A stretch of 64,000 bases of DNA from contig DAOORA010000001.1 in assembly GCA_035389045.1 (NCBI GenBank), forward strand, positions 84,017-148,016, given 5' to 3'. How positions within the stretch are numbered: position 1 is the first letter of the stretch; each line of letters begins with the position of its first letter. The position numbers were made by a program, and so were the translations under genes. Positions 56,909 to 64,000 of the stretch are shown here, in pieces. Under the pieces are notes generated by a model. It was not told where the DNA came from, did not search any database, and saw nothing but the letters and a program-made list of their open reading frames with translations. Origin of the DNA: Bacteroidales bacterium. Its GTDB lineage: Bacteria > Bacteroidota > Bacteroidia > Bacteroidales > CAIWKO01.

Positions 56909-57499
56909 TCACAACAACTCTTCGAGTTTGACAAGGTCAATAATAAAATCACTTGATTCATAGGTACTTCCGCTTCCTTTAAATTTTATTCTGATACTAT
57001 CTGCCGGCACTAAATTTAAGGTATCCCTGATTGTGAATTTTTCCCAATTATTCCACACGCCGAGGTTTATTTCTTTGTTTTTTATTGTCAACCCATTTCT
57101 TATTTGAGACAGGGAAACGGTTGCCGAATTTTGACCTGAATTGAGCGTTGCATAACATGAAAGTGACAAAAATTTGTTCCCGGAAAAATTTGTCAGATAC
57201 TTTTCAGCATAACTGAAGTGAAGTTTTTGGGCTTTTAAGTTCAATGCCCATTGTCCGCCGCCAGGGCAATCCGATGAAACAACAGTATCATATGGCACAC
57301 CACTATAATAATCATAAAACAAATTCCAGGCGGTAATATCGGGGTTGTTATTATTTTCAAAACTTGTTTCAAATAATACGACAATTTGATCAGGTTCATC
57401 TGAAGGGGTAATCTCATTTTCTTTTGTGCAGGAACAAAGGATAAATAACAATCCAAAGATCAATATATTTACGTGTTTCGCATTAAGTCGTTTTAGCAT
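56909..57499 (-). CDS. Hypothetical lipoprotein (possible carbohydrate-binding/jelly-roll-like domain)
   Basis: 196 aa with a lipobox (LFILCSCTKE). No recognisable motif. Confidence 0.5.
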   Translation of the reverse strand: MLKRLNAKHVNILIFGLLFILCSCTKENEITPSDEPDQIVVLFETSFENNNNPDITAWNLFYDYYSGVPYDTVVSSDCPGGGQWALNLKAQKLHFSYAEKYLTNFSGNKFLSLSCYATLNSGQNSATVSLSQIRNGLTIKNKEINLGVWNNWEKFTIRDTLNLVPADSIRIKFKGSGSTYESSDFIIDLVKLEELL

Positions 57500-57529: not shown

Positions 57530-58249
57530 TCATTCTCTTACTTTTTTTATGATGTCCATAATCTCTGATTTATTAGGAATTTCCATATTTGTCACGTAAT
57601 AATGTTCAAACACAAAGTCTCCAAATTCATTAGATTTCTTTATACCTGATTCAATGAATGACCCTACCGCAACGTCCATAGGAACCAAAACTGTCAGTCC
57701 GACAAAAGTGTATGACATATCTACTTTTTCTATAACACAATTTAAATCTTTGGCCAAAAGGTTGAATTCTCCTATTATCAGGTTCATCTGTATCGAAGTG
57801 AAGGACATGTCTAATGAAGGCAGAACGAATAAATAATATCGTAATTTGTCTTGAAGTCCTCCGAGGCCAGTTGAGATAAAGCCAATACTTTCATCTGTCA
57901 AGAAGCTTTCAAGCAACATTTTACACTCTTGCATTGCTAAGACAGCCCAAAGTTTTAATTCTTTGTCAGGTTGCTTATAATATTTTTCAATCTGTCGGAA
58001 TGAAGAAATCGTTCCAAGATGTGCTAAAAGTGTCAGGCCTTTTTTCTTGACTTCTATAGTTGCCCTTTTGTCAAAAAGGATGTTGCCTAATTTATTGGTC
58101 TCTGTCTCGGTCAACTCGCCAAAATCAAATGAATGGGAGTAGTCAAGGTATTCCTTTTGTGTTTGAAGGTCAATTCCTTCTTTTAGGATGTCGAATGTGT
58201 CAGGAAGATTTTCTAAAAATTCTCTTATTTCATCATGTTTGTCAGTCAT
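57530..58249 (-). CDS. Hypothetical cytoplasmic protein (orphan)
   Basis: 239-aa ORF without a signal peptide. The N-terminal part is HEAT-like helical (KKKGLTLLAHLGTISSFRQIEKYY...LKLWAVLAMQE). It starts 31 nt upstream of the lipoprotein gene. Confidence 0.5.
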   Translation of the reverse strand: MTDKHDEIREFLENLPDTFDILKEGIDLQTQKEYLDYSHSFDFGELTETETNKLGNILFDKRATIEVKKKGLTLLAHLGTISSFRQIEKYYKQPDKELKLWAVLAMQECKMLLESFLTDESIGFISTGLGGLQDKLRYYLFVLPSLDMSFTSIQMNLIIGEFNLLAKDLNCVIEKVDMSYTFVGLTVLVPMDVAVGSFIESGIKKSNEFGDFVFEHYYVTNMEIPNKSEIMDIIKKVRE

Positions 58250-58577: not shown

Positions 58578-59651
58578 TTAAAAAGCCCGGACAGCCCTCA
58601 CATAGGTTCCATATAGCTTACTGCCGCTCAGCGCAGGGCCGCCAATACCGAAGTCGAAAACCCACGCGCTGCTTGCATCGCCCTCCGACGACGTCCAGTA
58701 ATGACCTCTCACGAATGGAATAGTTGATGGATTGCCATCAGTGGTGAGGGCTTTTTGCACTTCGTAAAAGTTATTCCAGATGTGGTTTAATTCGGCAACA
58801 CCCGGCAAATACCAATCGCTGTATATGCCAGTGCCATAATCGGTATTGGTGTAATCGGCACAAAGCTTTGCTGAACTCACAGTATGACCGCTTTGCCCTG
58901 TTATAGCAGTTGTGTTGGTGGCACCATCCCAATCGTTGGTTGTGCCAACAGCACTATTTGTAACATTGCTCCATACATATAATGTACTAATGTCAACCAA
59001 ACTCACAATAAGCCCGTGTTGCCCTGTTTCATCCACCCAAAACACCAGGCCACCCTGGGCCAGGTCGCCTGCAGAATAAGAGGTTACACTGCCCGTTGTG
59101 CTGATTACATTATTCGTTATATCTATTCCGGCACCGGCTGTCAGTTGGTCTTGTTTTTCGTTCCAGTTCATTGTATCAGTCGCTGAAATGCCGCCTGCTA
59201 CCGAAGAAATAAATACAGGATCACTCTCGGTAACGGAACCTGTAAGAGATGCTGCTGTTTTTGCATGTAATGCATAAGGCACACTGATAAGCTGAGTAAT
59301 ACCCATGATCGCATAATTTGTTCCCCCATTCTGGTCGAGCTCCACCCGGATAAAATACGGACCGCTTGCCCAGTCTATACTCGCCATAGATCCGCTGACA
59401 AGAGTTCCCCCGCCAATATTTAACGCACTCAATCCGTACTGATTTGTTGTATCATGATGTGTTTCAACATAAACTGCGGTGCCGGAAACAGAACCCTGAA
59501 TGAGGCTGATACGGAACGAAACCGGCTGATTGTCAAGAATGTCACCATTCTGATCTCTGACTGCTGCCTGGTAGTTAAACTTTTCAGGTGCCTGAGCAAA
59601 CACATTTGCAACCATGAAAACGAATGCGAAAATGATAAATAATCTTTTCAT
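58578..59651 (-). CDS. Secreted modular protein with a C-terminal DUF1566 (Lcl C-terminal, C-type-lectin-like) domain
   Basis: Signal peptide present. The N-terminal module APEKFNYQAAVRDQNGDIL...VSFRISLIQGS..GTAVYVETH...PYFIRVELD..GGTNY...LISVPYALHAKTA is common in Bacteroidota surface and tail-fibre-like proteins. The C-terminus YSDWYLPGVAELNHI...YWTSSE...AWVFDF......YVRAVRAF is DUF1566-like. An AAGGAGG Shine-Dalgarno site lies 8 nt upstream. Confidence 0.68.
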   Translation of the reverse strand: MKRLFIIFAFVFMVANVFAQAPEKFNYQAAVRDQNGDILDNQPVSFRISLIQGSVSGTAVYVETHHDTTNQYGLSALNIGGGTLVSGSMASIDWASGPYFIRVELDQNGGTNYAIMGITQLISVPYALHAKTAASLTGSVTESDPVFISSVAGGISATDTMNWNEKQDQLTAGAGIDITNNVISTTGSVTSYSAGDLAQGGLVFWVDETGQHGLIVSLVDISTLYVWSNVTNSAVGTTNDWDGATNTTAITGQSGHTVSSAKLCADYTNTDYGTGIYSDWYLPGVAELNHIWNNFYEVQKALTTDGNPSTIPFVRGHYWTSSEGDASSAWVFDFGIGGPALSGSKLYGTYVRAVRAF

Positions 59652-60245
59652 CGTTTATTCCTCCTTATTTAATTTTCATTGGTTTTAATTGTATCATTCC
59701 TTTTTTTTTCTTGTATCAGAGTTACAAATCAGCTTGCCGGTGCATCCTTGCTCATAAACGATTTACATGCATTCGTATTGCTACTTTTACCATTCCCCGG
59801 CATTTATGCAATCCGTTTTAAATTGTAAATATCAGTATATTAACATATTGATTTTCGTTTTCAATACAATACAATTTTAAGTATTTGTAACCAATGATTT
59901 TTTCTATTATATATTATTTCAAAAATAATAAATATCAACTCAAATTAAAAATATTTTAACAATATTTTTTTTGTTTTTTTATTGGTAATTTGGCTCAATC
60001 AGAAAATCTGCAACATCAGTAGCTCAGATAAAATCGGAAATAAGTTGTTTAACAAATTGCGTTTCTCAGGTTATTCAATCTTTTATATGACATCATAATA
60101 CGATTTGAAAAACATAACAGTAGAAACTTTGTTTCCAAATGTTTGTAATTCTGCCGGGGAGGAATTGGATACTATCGGTATACACAAAATAAGAAACTGC
60201 AGTATGTCTTTGCTTTGAAAAACCCGGCAAAAGGACTTTTTAGAG

Positions 60246-60410
60246 TTTGTCCATAATGTCCGACTGCATCGTTATTCTTGTTTTGAAAACAGCCATCCGC
60301 CACCTGGCGGACTCCTTGACTTTCAAAGCTCCGAAAGCCCGCCTGAATGGCGCAGTCGGGCAGGCCTCGAATTCAAACATTCTGATTCAAACTCTGACTT
60401 TATGGACAGA
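60246..60410. repeat. Inverted-repeat-flanked ~165-bp element carrying the GC-rich H1+H2 hairpin pair
   Basis: Ends TTTGTCCATAATGTCCG (60246-60262) and CTGACTTTATGGACAGA (60394-60410) are inverted (14 of 17). H1 is CCGCCACCTGGCGG (60297-60310). H2 is GCCCGCCTGAATGGCGCAGTCGGGCAGGC (60337-60365). I found no target-site duplication. Confidence 0.5.
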
Positions 60411-60568
60411 TTCTATTTATTCTTTCACTTTAGTATCATTTGAACTTATCGTAGCGTTTTTGTGCGGGCCATAAGGATCATTTGTCGCAGGCTTTTTCTA
60501 CGCCTACAAGCTTTCAGGTTTTTGCAAAATCCCAGCCTGCATCTTCAACCCTGAGTTATGATTGAATA

Positions 60569-61618
60569 TTACCGACCCACCGGCATCACCGCTTCCGGGG
60601 AAATTTTAATCTTTACAGTATTTCCGGTATGAATATTAATGCCCGGCATATCTTCTTCGGGCACCCTGGCAAAAAAGTTCACTCCTGCATCCACCACAAC
60701 GCTGAAAAAATCCGGCGAAGGAATTATATCCGTCACCCTGCCCTCAAATATGTTTAACCCTGAAAAATTGGCGGATGGCAGGATTTTCACATCCTCTTCC
60801 CTGATAAAAACCGGAGTGCCTGTTGCACATTGGTACGATGAATAAATCTCAAAATCTTCCGGTAGCTTATGACGGTATAGTTCGCCTGCCTTTGATATTT
60901 CGATACCGGTGAAAAAATTCCTTATTCCCGTGAGAGCACATACAAAACGGCTTGCAGGATTTCTGAAGACTTCAGCCGGAGGCCCCGTCTGCTCAATGCT
61001 GCCTGAGTTAATTATCGTCAGTAAGTCGGCCAGGGCGTATGCCTCATAGTAATCATGTGTCACATGTATGATCGTCTGACCGGATTCTTTTAATTTTTTC
61101 AGCAGTCTGATCATATCGTATTGTATCAACACATCCAGTGAGGATAGTGGTTCATCGAGCAACAATACCGAAGGTTCCATCGCCAGTGTCCTTGCCAGCG
61201 CAACCCTCCTCAGTTCACCGCCCGAGAGGCCGGATGGCTTACGGCAGAGCAGATCCTTTATATTCATGGCTTCGGCCCATTTCAAAACCCTGCCCCTAAT
61301 TTCATTCTTTGTAAATCCTCTTCCATAACAGGCATAGGCAATATTTTTTTCCACACTCATATGGGGGAAAATTGCATTATCCTGAAAAACCAGCCCCACA
61401 CCACGTTTATTAGCCTTCAAACGGGTGATATCCTCTCCGTTAAAAAAAACACTTCCGCTATCAGGCTTCCTCAGTCCCGCAATGATCTCAAGCAACATGG
61501 TCTTACCGGCTCCCGACATCCCCAGTATCACAAAATATGCTCTGTCGGGTACGTCAAATGATACGTCCTTTAAAGCAAAATTGCCGGCTTTTTTCGATAT
61601 TTTCGTTACCTCAAGCAT
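60569..61618 (-). CDS. ABC transporter ATP-binding protein, ModC/WtpC/CysA-like with a C-terminal TOBE-like domain
   Basis: Walker A GMSGAGKT, signature LSGGELRR, Walker B LLLDEP, H-loop VTHD, and a ~110-aa C-terminal beta-rich extension. Confidence 0.88.
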   Translation of the reverse strand: MLEVTKISKKAGNFALKDVSFDVPDRAYFVILGMSGAGKTMLLEIIAGLRKPDSGSVFFNGEDITRLKANKRGVGLVFQDNAIFPHMSVEKNIAYACYGRGFTKNEIRGRVLKWAEAMNIKDLLCRKPSGLSGGELRRVALARTLAMEPSVLLLDEPLSSLDVLIQYDMIRLLKKLKESGQTIIHVTHDYYEAYALADLLTIINSGSIEQTGPPAEVFRNPASRFVCALTGIRNFFTGIEISKAGELYRHKLPEDFEIYSSYQCATGTPVFIREEDVKILPSANFSGLNIFEGRVTDIIPSPDFFSVVVDAGVNFFARVPEEDMPGINIHTGNTVKIKISPEAVMPVGR

Positions 61619-62402
61619 TTTTTGTCCTTGCCAGTAATCTCAGAATAATAAAGAATAATAATGATACGAGGATAAAAATCACGGCTACCGGACGCGCATA
61701 AGCCAGTCCAAACGATCCAAAGCGTTCATAAATCAATACCGGAGTTACCATGGGATGGTAAGCCACAATGACAATAGCCCCAAACTCGCTCATGCCCCGT
61801 GCAAACATCATGATGAGGCCGGACACTATGTTTTTCCATGCAAGAGGGAGCGACACGGTGAAAAACACCCTGAAAGGCGAAGCGCCAAGAACAAGTGCAG
61901 CATTTTCAAGTCTCACGGGAACACTCATAAAACCATCACGGGCCGAATTGATCAGAAAGGGAAGACTTACAAAAGCCATAGCTATTGAGATACCAGCCGG
62001 ATGGCCCACCAGGTCGATACCGAAAGCAGAAGCCGTTTTTCCCACAACCGTATCGCGAGAAATAAATCCCAATATTGCAATACCGGCTGCCGAATGAGGG
62101 ATAACAATGGGCAGGTCGATGATGCCGAGTACCAATCTTTTCAGATGAAAGTCTTTACGTGCGAGAATATAAGCCAGAGGAACAGCTCCGAAAGCAGCAA
62201 AAAGTGTCGCCGCCATGGCAGTGAATAAGGTCAGCCAGATGGAATCACGTACTTCCGTATCCTGCGCTGTTTCAAAGATAGCCGACAACGGCGTGGCAAA
62301 AAACATACCTGCTACAGGCGCAATAAGAAATATCAATAGCAGCCCGCCCAGTAATATAAGCAGAAGCCTGAAAGGAGAGATCATACTGTTTTTTTCAATC
62401 AT
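61611..62402 (-). CDS. ABC transporter permease, ModB/WtpB/CysTW family
   Basis: 263 aa with 5-6 TM helices. EAA loop LENAALVLGASPFRVFFTVSLPLAWKNIVSG, followed by ARGMSEFGAIVIVAYHP, which is reminiscent of the tungstate/molybdate WtpB type. Confidence 0.85.
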   Translation of the reverse strand: MIEKNSMISPFRLLLILLGGLLLIFLIAPVAGMFFATPLSAIFETAQDTEVRDSIWLTLFTAMAATLFAAFGAVPLAYILARKDFHLKRLVLGIIDLPIVIPHSAAGIAILGFISRDTVVGKTASAFGIDLVGHPAGISIAMAFVSLPFLINSARDGFMSVPVRLENAALVLGASPFRVFFTVSLPLAWKNIVSGLIMMFARGMSEFGAIVIVAYHPMVTPVLIYERFGSFGLAYARPVAVIFILVSLLFFIILRLLARTKNA

Positions 62403-62420
62403 TACATCAAATTCAATGCA

Positions 62421-63494
62421 TTACCTGTTAACACAGCGGATCTCAGTCAGCGCCTTGACTGCACGGTCGCTGAAAAAATCCATAGGTGGAAAGAGCCGGA
62501 AAACAGCGTCGTCTTTTTCTTCAGGGCCGGCGGCAATAAGCAGCAATTCGGCATGATCGTTGCGGTTCATCACCTCGCTGTAACTATATACACAACGATA
62601 ACCATCTTTGGCCACGGCCACAATCAAGCCCTTCTGCAGGCGTTCCAGGCTCATCGAAAAATCCTTCTGGAGGATATCCTTCATCATAACACCTTTAAAA
62701 GGCTGAGTGCTGTGAATTCCCCTGCCCCGGCCATAAAAAATTGCAGGATAGTTCTGTTGCAGCAAGTCTGCGGGCATATTTTTTATGATCTCACAATCCA
62801 TCTTACCGTCAGAAATTCTGAATTCCGGACTGTATAAGGGTTTCATGCCTTTCTCAATGGGAACATCATCCAGCGGATAAGAAACGACGGAAATTTTTAC
62901 CGGGTTTGAAATATTTCTCGCGGTGATCAGGTCGCTGGCGACCACCAGCCGGGTGTTTTCAGGCAAGGTCCACAGCTCTTTGGTTTTGCTGGGCACTATC
63001 CTCATGACATCTGTAGCAATCAGTATTTCATGACGGTGTATAGGATAATAAATCTCACCCCAGGAGAGCACTACTTTTTCACCTTTATTATTCTCGATCT
63101 CGACAAACAGGTCAATTATTGGAGGGAAATCTTCCTCATTTTTCTTTTTCAATATTATCTGGTTCAGAATATCATAAACGGAATATCCGTCATAGCGGTA
63201 AGCGCCATAAAAAGAATCTGCCGGGGCTTTGTAAATGGTTTCCTTTACGATAACACTTCTCTTTGTCAACTTTGAAAAATCAACGGTACCCGCATTTGCC
63301 ACTTCCCCAGCCACCTCAATTTTGCGGTCGCCTTTCAGGGCAAATGTTTCGGCATTGTCATAAAAGTCATTGGTTCTGTCAGCCGTATCGGCAGGTATGG
63401 CAGCTCCTTCTGCTGTGTTTTCTTTTTGTGTTTGATGGCATGAAGCCAATATGGCTGCAGCAAATAGTAATGCTAATAGTTTAATCTTTTTCAT
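62421..63494 (-). CDS. Lipoprotein with two tandem domains resembling the molybdopterin-oxidoreductase (SUOX/YedY, Oxidored_molyb) fold; function unknown
   Basis: Lipobox ILASCHQ. The C-terminal half FKGVMMKDILQKD...AVAKDGYRCVYSYSEV...AELLLIAAG...FRLFPPMDFFSDRAVKALTEIRCV follows the order of Oxidored_molyb landmarks. The N-terminal half repeats the pattern (IEVAGEV..GTVDFSKL...YRYDGYSVYDILNQI...VVLSWGEIYY...ILIATD...NPVKISVV). This is a by-eye assignment only. Confidence 0.5.
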   Translation of the reverse strand: MKKIKLLALLFAAAILASCHQTQKENTAEGAAIPADTADRTNDFYDNAETFALKGDRKIEVAGEVANAGTVDFSKLTKRSVIVKETIYKAPADSFYGAYRYDGYSVYDILNQIILKKKNEEDFPPIIDLFVEIENNKGEKVVLSWGEIYYPIHRHEILIATDVMRIVPSKTKELWTLPENTRLVVASDLITARNISNPVKISVVSYPLDDVPIEKGMKPLYSPEFRISDGKMDCEIIKNMPADLLQQNYPAIFYGRGRGIHSTQPFKGVMMKDILQKDFSMSLERLQKGLIVAVAKDGYRCVYSYSEVMNRNDHAELLLIAAGPEEKDDAVFRLFPPMDFFSDRAVKALTEIRCVNR

Positions 63495-63533
63495 AGTCGT
63501 TTGTTATTATTAATAATTACAATATATTTAATT

Positions 63534-64000
63534 TTATTGTGTTTCTCTATTATTTGCGCTAAAGGTATAACTTATCTTTCCAAGGACCATCCTCCCCGGA
63601 GATTTATAGCCCTTGCTATTGATATAAACGATGTTGAATAAATTATCAATATCGATGCTGAAGTCAAATGGCCCGACATTCTGCCAGACCTTGATATCGG
63701 TGATAAACCGGGCAGGATACCTGTCGGTCATCATAAAAATGTTGTCCACGGTGTTATCGTCTTTTATCCAGCGGGTACCTGTATATTTTCCGGATACACT
63801 AAGGTTAAAATAATCCGTTCGCAGACTGATACCGGATGAAAACTGGTGCATAGGTACGTCGGGCAGGAACTTTCCGGTCAGGTCGCGGTCTGCCGCTGTA
63901 TTAGGCACAAACCGGCTAACGGTGGAATGGTTAAACGTATAGTTGATATAGGCCCTTAGATATTTTCCAATAGGAGCAGACACATCGGCTTCCAGTCCAT
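63534..64000 (-). CDS. TonB-dependent receptor, C-terminal beta-barrel fragment; the gene continues beyond the window
   Basis: The frame is open to the window edge. It shows an alternating beta-strand pattern, ...FDFSIDIDNLFN..Y......Y..PGR.VLGKISYTF near the C-terminus. Confidence 0.72.
   Translation of the reverse strand, partial: GLEADVSAPIGKYLRAYINYTFNHSTVSRFVPNTAADRDLTGKFLPDVPMHQFSSGISLRTDYFNLSVSGKYTGTRWIKDDNTVDNIFMMTDRYPARFITDIKVWQNVGPFDFSIDIDNLFNIVYINSKGYKSPGRMVLGKISYTFSANNRETQ

Follow-up and report, generated by a model that had tools for sequence, protein, structure and literature searches.

A seven-gene cluster of a Bacteroidales bacterium predicted to serve tungstate/molybdate acquisition joins a WtpABC importer to a TonB-dependent receptor and a duplicated SUOX-fold lipoprotein

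A 64,000-nucleotide stretch of DNA from a Bacteroidales bacterium (assembly GCA_035389045.1, contig DAOORA010000001.1, positions 84,017 to 148,016; its whole length is referred to as the window) carries at its end a group of minus-strand genes for a putative tungstate/molybdate uptake system, which is the subject of the present analysis. The table of open reading frames (ORFs) of the window lists minus-strand ORFs at 60569–61618 (349 aa), 61611–62402 (263 aa) and 62421–63494 (357 aa) as well as a minus-strand frame open from 63534 up to the window end. Gaps of 39 nt (63495–63533) and 18 nt (62403–62420) and an overlap of 8 nt (61611–61618) separate or join them. A preliminary description had read this arrangement as four co-directional genes for a TonB-dependent receptor, a lipoprotein, a permease and an ATPase; coordinates, gaps and overlap are all reproduced by the ORF table.

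Locus L001 of a Bacteroidales metagenome-assembled genome (GCA_029561235.1) is identical to the window across 10,001 nt (0 mismatches) and is therefore usable as an extension of it. Positions past the window end are given as virtual coordinates (window position equals 73495 minus L001 coordinate). The four window genes form the downstream end of a co-directional cluster of seven genes with the order wtpA, lipo318, the gene for a tandem-repeat protein secreted by the type IX secretion system (T9SS), the TonB-dependent receptor gene, lipo357, wtpB and wtpC, where lipo318 and lipo357 denote two lipoproteins and their genes. The features of the cluster are as follows:

69503–69526 (virtual; L001 3969–3992): ModE-type box 1, 36 bp upstream of wtpA, 0 mismatches
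68469–69467 (virtual; L001 4028–5026), minus strand: wtpA, 332-aa lipoprotein
68401–68424 (virtual; L001 5071–5094): ModE-type box 2, 54 bp upstream of lipo318, 2 mismatches
67391–68347 (virtual), minus strand: lipo318, 318-aa lipoprotein without family
65941–67347 (virtual; L001 6148–7554), minus strand: T9SS-secreted tandem-repeat protein, 468 aa
63534–65876 (virtual; L001 7619–9961), minus strand: TonB-dependent receptor, 780 aa by the longest ORF, the last 155 codons lying in the window (63534–64000)
62421–63494, minus strand: lipo357, lipoprotein of Sec/signal peptidase II type, 357 aa
61611–62402, minus strand: wtpB-like permease, 263 aa
60569–61618, minus strand: wtpC-like ATPase with a C-terminal regulatory domain, 349 aa
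60295–60312, minus strand: terminator-like hairpin (7-bp stem, 5 GC pairs; T-rich tail; consensus scan), about 257 nt past the wtpC stop

The gene for the WtpA binding protein lies about 4.5 kb past position 64000, on the same contig and in the same orientation. Its product matched TIGR03730 with 297.4 bits (cut-off 242.75), PF13531 (SBP_bac_11) with an E value of 9.3e-30 and the ModA/WtpA structure of A. fulgidus (PDB 2onk_E) with 3.3e-65. In the alignment, D157 (SDPESDPCGVR) and E195 (RPKETDL) pair with acidic residues of 2onk_E, at positions which we take to be those of the two metal-ligating carboxylates responsible for octahedral oxyanion coordination in WtpA. Judged by sequence, WtpA is a bona fide canonical class-III periplasmic binding protein of a WtpABC importer. 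The permease, which contains the EAA loop LENAALVLGASPFRVFFTVSLPL and belongs to Pfam BPD_transp_1, was best matched among NCBIfam models by WtpB (NF040839; 281.6 bits, cut-off 340) and among PDB entries by A. fulgidus ModB (2onk_C; 2.5e-60) and 3d31_C (2.6e-55). The ATPase was best matched by WtpC (NF040840; 300.5 bits over model positions 1–344 of 347, cut-off 440) and, across residues 1–320, by ModC of M. acetivorans (PDB 3d31_A; 7.4e-60); Pfam TOBE did not match it at E ≤ 0.1. The earlier assignment of permease and ATPase to the molybdate/tungstate class is borne out by these best matches to WtpB/WtpC and ModB/ModC, and a complete WtpABC importer with a WtpB-like permease and a WtpC-like ATPase is predicted to be present. 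Tungsten rather than molybdenum is suggested as its metal because of the Wtp/Tup partners and the AOR-family neighbours found in related loci.

It had further been claimed that the importer has no canonical binding protein and that an unrelated lipoprotein occupies its slot. Inspection of the sequence upstream of position 64000 for a classical binding-protein gene revealed wtpA in the same cluster, and this claim falls because the gene is present just outside the window. In related loci, too, lipo357 occurs together with WtpA or TupA and not in place of them. As a candidate binding protein, lipo357 was ruled out by the presence of WtpA in the cluster. In keeping with this, lipo357 matched none of the binding-protein families of Pfam and NCBIfam, and its model is beta-rich, with significant structural matches exclusively to the SUOX fold.

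The N-terminus of lipo357, MKKIKLLALLFAAAILASC, has a lipobox and no twin arginine, whereas MsrP has RRQVLK. The sequence yielded no above-threshold match in Pfam, NCBIfam or the PDB sequences; PF00174 (Oxidored_molyb), which had been suggested for 62421–63494, gave none at E ≤ 0.1, and a profile of 53 family sequences matched no PDB sequence. The 2105 matches that constitute the lipo357 family are all unnamed. Structure prediction and structural search, which had likewise been suggested, were more informative. The AlphaFold2 model (40 homologues; pLDDT 84, pTM 0.81) consists of a disordered tether (residues 20–37) and two beta-rich domains (about 40–212 and 213–357). In a Foldseek search against the PDB, ranks 1–11 were all SUOX-fold domains that bind molybdenum cofactor (Moco), namely those of T. 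thermophilus sulfite oxidase, SorA sulfite dehydrogenase, YedY/MsrP and a nitrate reductase Mo-domain fragment (probability 1.00, E 1.2e-5 to 4.1e-4), followed by noise. Their TM scores are low (0.26–0.35) because every match spans one half of lipo357. The two domains matched each other in hhalign with a probability of 98.6% (E 5.9e-16), and a comparison of profiles aligned domain 1 with E. coli MsrP (82%, E 1e-5), the two having the motifs TNDFYD/YNNFYEF and V/I-x-GEV in common; the N-terminal N-x-F-Y motif is invariant among close lipo357 relatives. Domain 2 did not match MsrP significantly when compared directly (probability 0.3%), and its fold is assigned through its match to domain 1. At the level of profiles and model, lipo357 is confirmed as a protein in which the SUOX/YedY molybdopterin-binding fold is present twice in tandem, as the preliminary description had supposed when it likened both halves to molybdopterin oxidoreductases.

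The features of a working cofactor site appear to be missing from this duplicated fold. The Mo-ligand Cys of MsrP (motif RMRCVEAW) is aligned to the non-conserved P91 of lipo357, and no conserved Cys was found among the invariant or near-invariant columns of the family. Since this ligand is missing and the signal is that of a Sec lipoprotein and not of the Tat type, lipo357 is concluded to be, as far as sequence tells, a non-catalytic derivative of the SUOX fold and not a molybdoenzyme; a Sec signal devoid of the twin-arginine motif would not permit export of the protein together with a cofactor already inserted in the cytoplasm. As an active SUOX enzyme, lipo357 was rejected on account of the missing Cys and the Sec signal.

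Distant members of the family reach the Pfam Oxidored_molyb threshold (P0228, 46.8 bits). They include a clade of tandem SUOX-fold proteins (P0203, P0210, P0228, P0215 and P0226) in whose domain 1 a CxxCH haem-c motif is inserted; although they start with a signal peptide, several of these proteins (about 590 aa) end in a tetrapyrrole-methylase domain (PF00590).

The receptor fragment within the window (63534–63998) corresponds to the last 110 or so positions of Pfam TonB_dep_Rec_b-barrel (E 2.5e-7), and the full receptor read from L001 comprises an N-terminal CarbopepD_reg_2 domain, a plug (PF07715, 3e-20) and a barrel (PF00593, 1.8e-34). Its sole solved relatives are remote (PhuR, PDB 8the; 4.6e-17), and the families that match it best, those of haem- and B12-type receptors, do so with scores far under their cut-offs. 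In the lipo318 family, the lipid-anchor Cys is followed by [K/S]-K-[D/E]-[D/E]-[D/E]; among 31 homologues, D/E has a frequency of 0.84 at position +4, 0.68 at +5 and 0.52 at +6. This matches K-(D/E)2, the export signal of Bacteroidota surface lipoproteins (PMC5080379). The families of lipo357 and WtpA have D/E frequencies of at most 0.28 at the export-signal positions. Because the lipo318 family carries the signal and the other two do not, surface exposure is predicted for lipo318 and a periplasmic orientation for lipo357 and WtpA. An immunoglobulin-like N-terminal domain is seen in the lipo318 model (pLDDT 87), which is best matched by the uncharacterised DUF4466 structure 4ei0 (E 2.9e-11); no mention of DUF4466 was found in the literature searched. 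The gene between lipo318 and the receptor codes for a protein with a T9SS sorting domain and two 175-aa repeats (44% identical, E 6e-43), for which no relative was detected in Pfam or among the PDB sequences; it is found in this position in 17 related loci.

Alignment of the wtpA upstream regions of five close loci revealed a conserved palindrome just upstream of a TAnnTTTG element, which presumably represents the Bacteroidota-type promoter element. When 1.31 Mb of loci were scanned with the pattern [CG]GWTATG-N10-CATATC[CG] (at most one mismatch), 62 sites were found as compared to 1.55 expected (40-fold). No more than 200 bp upstream of a gene were 47 of these, distributed over wtpA (16), lipo318 (13), a ModE-domain gene (11), an AOR-like gene (6) and lipo357 (1). 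In its 24-bp form the palindrome reads CGWTATGYA-N6-TRCATATCG, with 60 further sites in L005–L083. The two boxes of the present cluster are GGTTATGCAATGATGTTCATATCC and CGATATGCAGGAATTTGCATTTCC. The operator of E. coli modA, read from the genome (CGTTATATTGTCGCCTACATAACG), has the same 24-bp span and the same outer half-sites as the Bacteroidales box; the ModE consensus of E. coli is ATCGNTATATA-N6-TATATANCGAT, and species with stand-alone ModE DNA-binding domains have been described, e.g. Desulfovibrio (PMC545781). Both boxes lie beyond position 64000, the window itself containing no ModE-type box. Box 2, situated 54 bp upstream of lipo318, heads the block that leads from the outer-membrane genes via lipo357 to wtpBC. 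Among the outer-membrane modules without a nearby wtp gene, 6 of 11 carry the box, which provides independent evidence for placing the receptor module in a Mo/W regulon. The palindrome is regarded as a candidate Mo/W regulon signal for the phylum.

The degree of conservation was assessed by a scan of one genome per species, which yielded 562 genomes with a lipo357 relative, nearly all of uncultured Bacteroidales or Bacteroidota; according to record titles, many derive from digesters, sediments, peat, anoxic lakes or a sulfidic spring. Gene order was evaluated in 81 non-redundant loci. Directly upstream of lipo357 the receptor was found in 38 and WtpA in 14 of them, and directly downstream WtpB in 33, WtpA in 10 and TupA in 2. 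Of the 47 loci with full flanks, 36 contain a Wtp/Tup gene within 8 kb; among the others, 9 contain just the receptor and 2 lack both. Thus, the link between receptor and transporter pointed out in the preliminary description is kept across many genomes. In at least 14 loci lipo357 accompanies WtpABC without a receptor. As the sole element common to "receptor-only" and "ABC-only" versions of the locus, lipo357 fits a place between the two membranes.

Unsupervised clustering of all flanking ORFs, followed by annotation, retrieved several recurrent neighbours, namely a regulator that consists of the ModE N-terminal domain alone and has no Mop domains (about 127 aa; 19 loci), AOR-family proteins (10 loci), MoeA, MoaA and MoaC (9 loci each) and MOSC/MoaB (7 loci); no recurrent metallophore biosynthesis genes were among the clustered neighbourhoods. 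Two loci exemplify these associations: in L040, where the partner transporter is TupABC with its unrelated tungstate binding-protein family, the order is lipo357-tupA-tupB-ATPase-moeA-moaA-moaC, and in L030 an AOR-like gene is followed by a ModE-domain gene, wtpA, an aldehyde dehydrogenase gene and lipo357. The receptor, lipo318 and lipo357 are shown by these neighbourhoods to be conserved partners of Wtp/Tup transporters and Moco-biosynthesis genes. In P0152, lipo357 and WtpA are joined in a single 623-aa ORF (L086, 2205–4076; JGI metagenome 3300003279), the WtpA part of which scores 288 bits against TIGR03730. As a separate observation, an aldehyde dehydrogenase of the L-glutamate gamma-semialdehyde or piperideine-6-carboxylate type is encoded in 14 loci (e.g. 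L026, L045, L055, L059 and L075), often divergently from the ModE-domain gene and with ModE-type boxes in the common intergenic region.

All three core components of the cluster match described WtpABC and archaeal ModABC systems (WtpA of P. furiosus, ModA-ModB2C2 of A. fulgidus, 2onk, and ModBC of M. acetivorans, 3d31), and the ATPase keeps a C-terminal domain similar to that of 3d31. Differences from these systems are that wtpA is parted from wtpBC by four extra genes, that WtpA is a lipoprotein, and that the described systems have neither an outer-membrane nor a SUOX-fold partner. A comparative survey of prokaryotic Mo/W uptake names the inner-membrane ABC systems ModABC, WtpABC and TupABC only, with no outer-membrane or accessory periplasmic component (PMC6147048). 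With the SUOX enzymes (MsrP/YedY, 1xdq and 1xdy; SorA, 2blf; the T. thermophilus enzyme, 6y0k), lipo357 has in common the fold of each half and the predicted periplasmic location, and with MsrP also the NxFY and GEV motifs. It differs from them in its tandem architecture, in lacking the Mo-ligand Cys, in its Sec/lipoprotein instead of Tat signal, in the absence of a dimerisation or haem domain and of a redox partner, and in a genomic role that tracks metal uptake and not a redox pathway.

The combination of a surface lipoprotein with a TonB-dependent transporter is known from Bacteroidota for vitamin B12, where BtuB cooperates with BtuG and BtuH (PMC6143338, PMC8941943). Like these, HmuY-HmuR (haem) and SusCD, the present cluster has, beside the receptor gene, a gene for a lipoprotein whose family carries the K-(D/E)2 signal, and an ABC importer with its own binding protein. 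Unlike BtuG, HmuY and SusD, lipo318 has DUF4466 4ei0 as nearest structure, and the cargo inferred here is an inorganic oxyanion; the additional SUOX-fold lipoprotein in the periplasm and the repeat protein secreted via the T9SS likewise set the cluster apart from the Sus, Btu and Hmu systems. The regulon of ModE in E. coli and other organisms is resembled in the 24-bp palindrome with CGnTAT...ATAnCG ends, in its position 36–54 bp before start codons and, in other loci, in its location ahead of the regulator's own gene. In contrast to the E. coli regulon, TATG/CATA takes the place of TATATA at the centre, a TonB-dependent receptor module is among the targets, and the regulator of related genomes is a stand-alone N-terminal domain without Mop, which resembles the situation in Desulfovibrio (PMC545781). 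The one reported case of molybdate acquisition by means of a secreted binder and an outer-membrane protein is that of P. aeruginosa, with ModA secreted by the type VI secretion system and the outer-membrane protein IcmP (as cited in PMC11734730). There, the secretion route differs (T6SS versus T9SS), the secreted binder is ModA itself and there is no SUOX-fold component; where PMC11734730 refers to IcmP, it does not describe it as a TonB-dependent receptor.

Taken together, the cluster probably encodes a Mo/W-regulated, envelope-spanning system for the acquisition of tungstate/molybdate in which the SUOX-fold lipoprotein acts as a periplasmic accessory. Under scarcity of Mo/W, a ModE-domain regulator would release both promoters. 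Scarce W/Mo species would be captured at the cell surface by lipo318, possibly with the aid of the secreted repeat protein; candidates for these species are very dilute free oxyanion and the thiolated or particle-bound forms that are characteristic of sulfidic habitats devoid of oxygen. The TonB-dependent receptor would then pump them into the periplasm, where lipo357, as a tethered Moco-less pseudo-enzyme, might receive or hold the oxyanion in the former oxyanion/Mo pocket of its SUOX fold and hand it to lipid-anchored WtpA. Docking of WtpA on WtpBC would finally allow ATP-driven import.

Several points weigh against this interpretation. The part assigned to lipo357 derives solely from genomic context and predicted fold, and free tungstate and molybdate are small enough to pass porins, such that the substrate of the receptor could be larger. 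Both WtpB and WtpC score below the NCBIfam equivalog cut-offs, which bears on the specificity for W versus Mo. In the genome studied here, the box upstream of lipo318 has two mismatches, the export signal of lipo318 itself is weak (C-KKKTDP), and tblastn detected no gene for a ModE-domain regulator in the window plus extension (74 kb of the genome), nor genes for AOR, MoeA, MoaA or MoaC. The box is missing from 5 of the 11 stand-alone outer-membrane modules. The lipo357::WtpA fusion could be real or could result from an assembly or frameshift merge of adjacent genes; it occurs on two short metagenome contigs alone, with no wtpBC nearby and with no clear signal peptide at the called start, and for its short contigs devoid of wtpBC it lends little weight to the proposed pairing.

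The most serious of the rival explanations, though an unlikely one, is the salvage of a cofactor or chelate, in which receptor, lipo318 and lipo357 would import a larger Mo/W-containing molecule such as released molybdopterin or tungstopterin cofactor or a metallophore complex; lipo357 would bind it via its Moco-binding fold, and the metal would be freed in the periplasm and taken up as oxyanion by WtpABC. Salvage would fit the typical cargo of TonB-dependent receptors, which is too large or too scarce to be supplied by porins, the Moco-binding nature of the SUOX fold, the N-x-F-Y motif that lipo357 shares with MsrP (YNNFYEF), and the outer-membrane modules that stand alone in some genomes. 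Against salvage speak the at least 14 loci in which lipo357 is found with WtpABC and no receptor, the absence of an inner-membrane pterin transporter and of recurrent metallophore biosynthesis genes in the neighbourhoods, and the loss of the Mo-anchoring Cys that all SUOX enzymes possess.

Less probable still is that the receptor module imports unrelated cargo such as haem, a corrinoid or a glycan, and lies beside wtp by chance or by synteny within one lineage. This would agree with the haem- and B12-type best matches of the receptor, even though these remain far below cut-offs, and with the fusion of the tandem domain to a tetrapyrrole methylase in the distant clade. The linkage persists, however, across loci that differ in gene order and whose lipo357 shares just 50–60% identity with that of the window, it holds with the two unrelated binding-protein families Wtp and Tup, and ModE-type boxes precede the lipo318-receptor module even in places with no wtp gene nearby.

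Quite improbable, too, is a role of lipo357 as a working periplasmic molybdo- or tungsto-enzyme (a reductase or oxidase of sulfite, sulfoxide or thio-oxyanions) that is co-regulated through its need for the metal. Its fold matches SUOX enzymes alone, and the distant relatives that reach the Oxidored_molyb threshold bear a haem-c motif; the lipo357 clade, by contrast, has neither this motif nor a recurrent redox-partner gene, PF00174 does not match the window protein, the MsrP Cys is aligned to a variable position in a family with no conserved Cys, and the Sec/lipoprotein signal without twin arginine is incompatible with export of a cytoplasm-inserted cofactor. Hardly credible, finally, is a WtpBC/ModBC-type importer that dispenses with a type-II binding protein and relies on the tandem-domain lipoprotein to capture the substrate and dock on the permease: wtpB does follow lipo357 directly in 33 of 81 loci, and lipo357 is, as is WtpA, a lipoprotein without surface-export signal, but a canonical WtpA is encoded in the same cluster on the same contig, most loci have WtpA/TupA as well as lipo357 (in 24 loci side by side, and once as a fusion), and lipo357 resembles periplasmic binding proteins neither in sequence nor in fold.

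The core importer of the cluster is already known. No description of the accessory lipo357 family, of its SUOX-fold pseudo-enzyme nature or of a TonB-dependent module under ModE-box control was encountered in the 2025 copy of Pfam, in NCBIfam 20.0 or in the papers searched. With greater reserve than the acquisition function as such, it is put forward that the locus may represent the first TonB-dependent, surface-lipoprotein-assisted outer-membrane pathway for W/Mo, governed by a ModE-type operator and employing a cofactor-less SUOX duplicate as oxyanion chaperone between receptor and WtpA/TupA. In sulfidic habitats, Mo is largely present as thiomolybdate or bound to minerals, and its acquisition there has been called a paradox (PMC11484787). 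Should the tentative reading be true, the secreted and surface proteins together with the receptor would be the missing Mo/W scavenging machinery of anoxic sulfidic habitats.

The occurrence of relatives in 562 species genomes suggests that the importer is supplemented in many anaerobic Bacteroidota by an energised gate in the outer membrane, a surface lipoprotein and a new periplasmic family; these added components lie behind ModE-type operators, although a box directly upstream of lipo357 itself is seen in one locus only. If confirmed, W and Mo would join the metals that enter through TonB-dependent receptors, a large family of "hypothetical" lipoproteins would gain a function, and an enzyme fold would prove to be reused as a non-catalytic metal-handling protein, providing a concrete candidate for the Mo/W supply of anaerobes where sulfide makes these metals scarce. 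For annotation purposes, the families of lipo357, lipo318 and the receptor could serve as markers of the Mo/W regulon.

A Moco or other riboswitch, for which a search had been suggested, was not detected when 14 kb of the cluster were scanned with Rfam (E ≤ 1); what is found instead is a ModE-type operator. The sole Rfam matches were two tRNA genes (52.6 and 52.5 bits; L001 3683–3867, minus strand, virtual about 69628–69812), which are located directly upstream of the wtpA promoter region and form the 5' boundary of the cluster. At the opposite side, the hairpin at 60295–60312 is, on weak evidence, a candidate end of the transcription unit; it is the only element retained from a scan whose sigma-70 promoter part is uninformative for Bacteroidota and was set aside. 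The 917-nt intergenic stretch downstream of wtpC (59652–60568) has no convincing ORF and no Rfam match. It is followed by the minus-strand gene for a 357-aa secreted protein (58578–59651), whose C-terminus is an Lcl domain (PF07603, 2.1e-10) and whose N-terminus is weakly Big_1-like, and then by two family-less ORFs (57530–58249 and 56909–57499). These three ORFs are kept beside the cluster solely in identical contigs and are probably unrelated to it.

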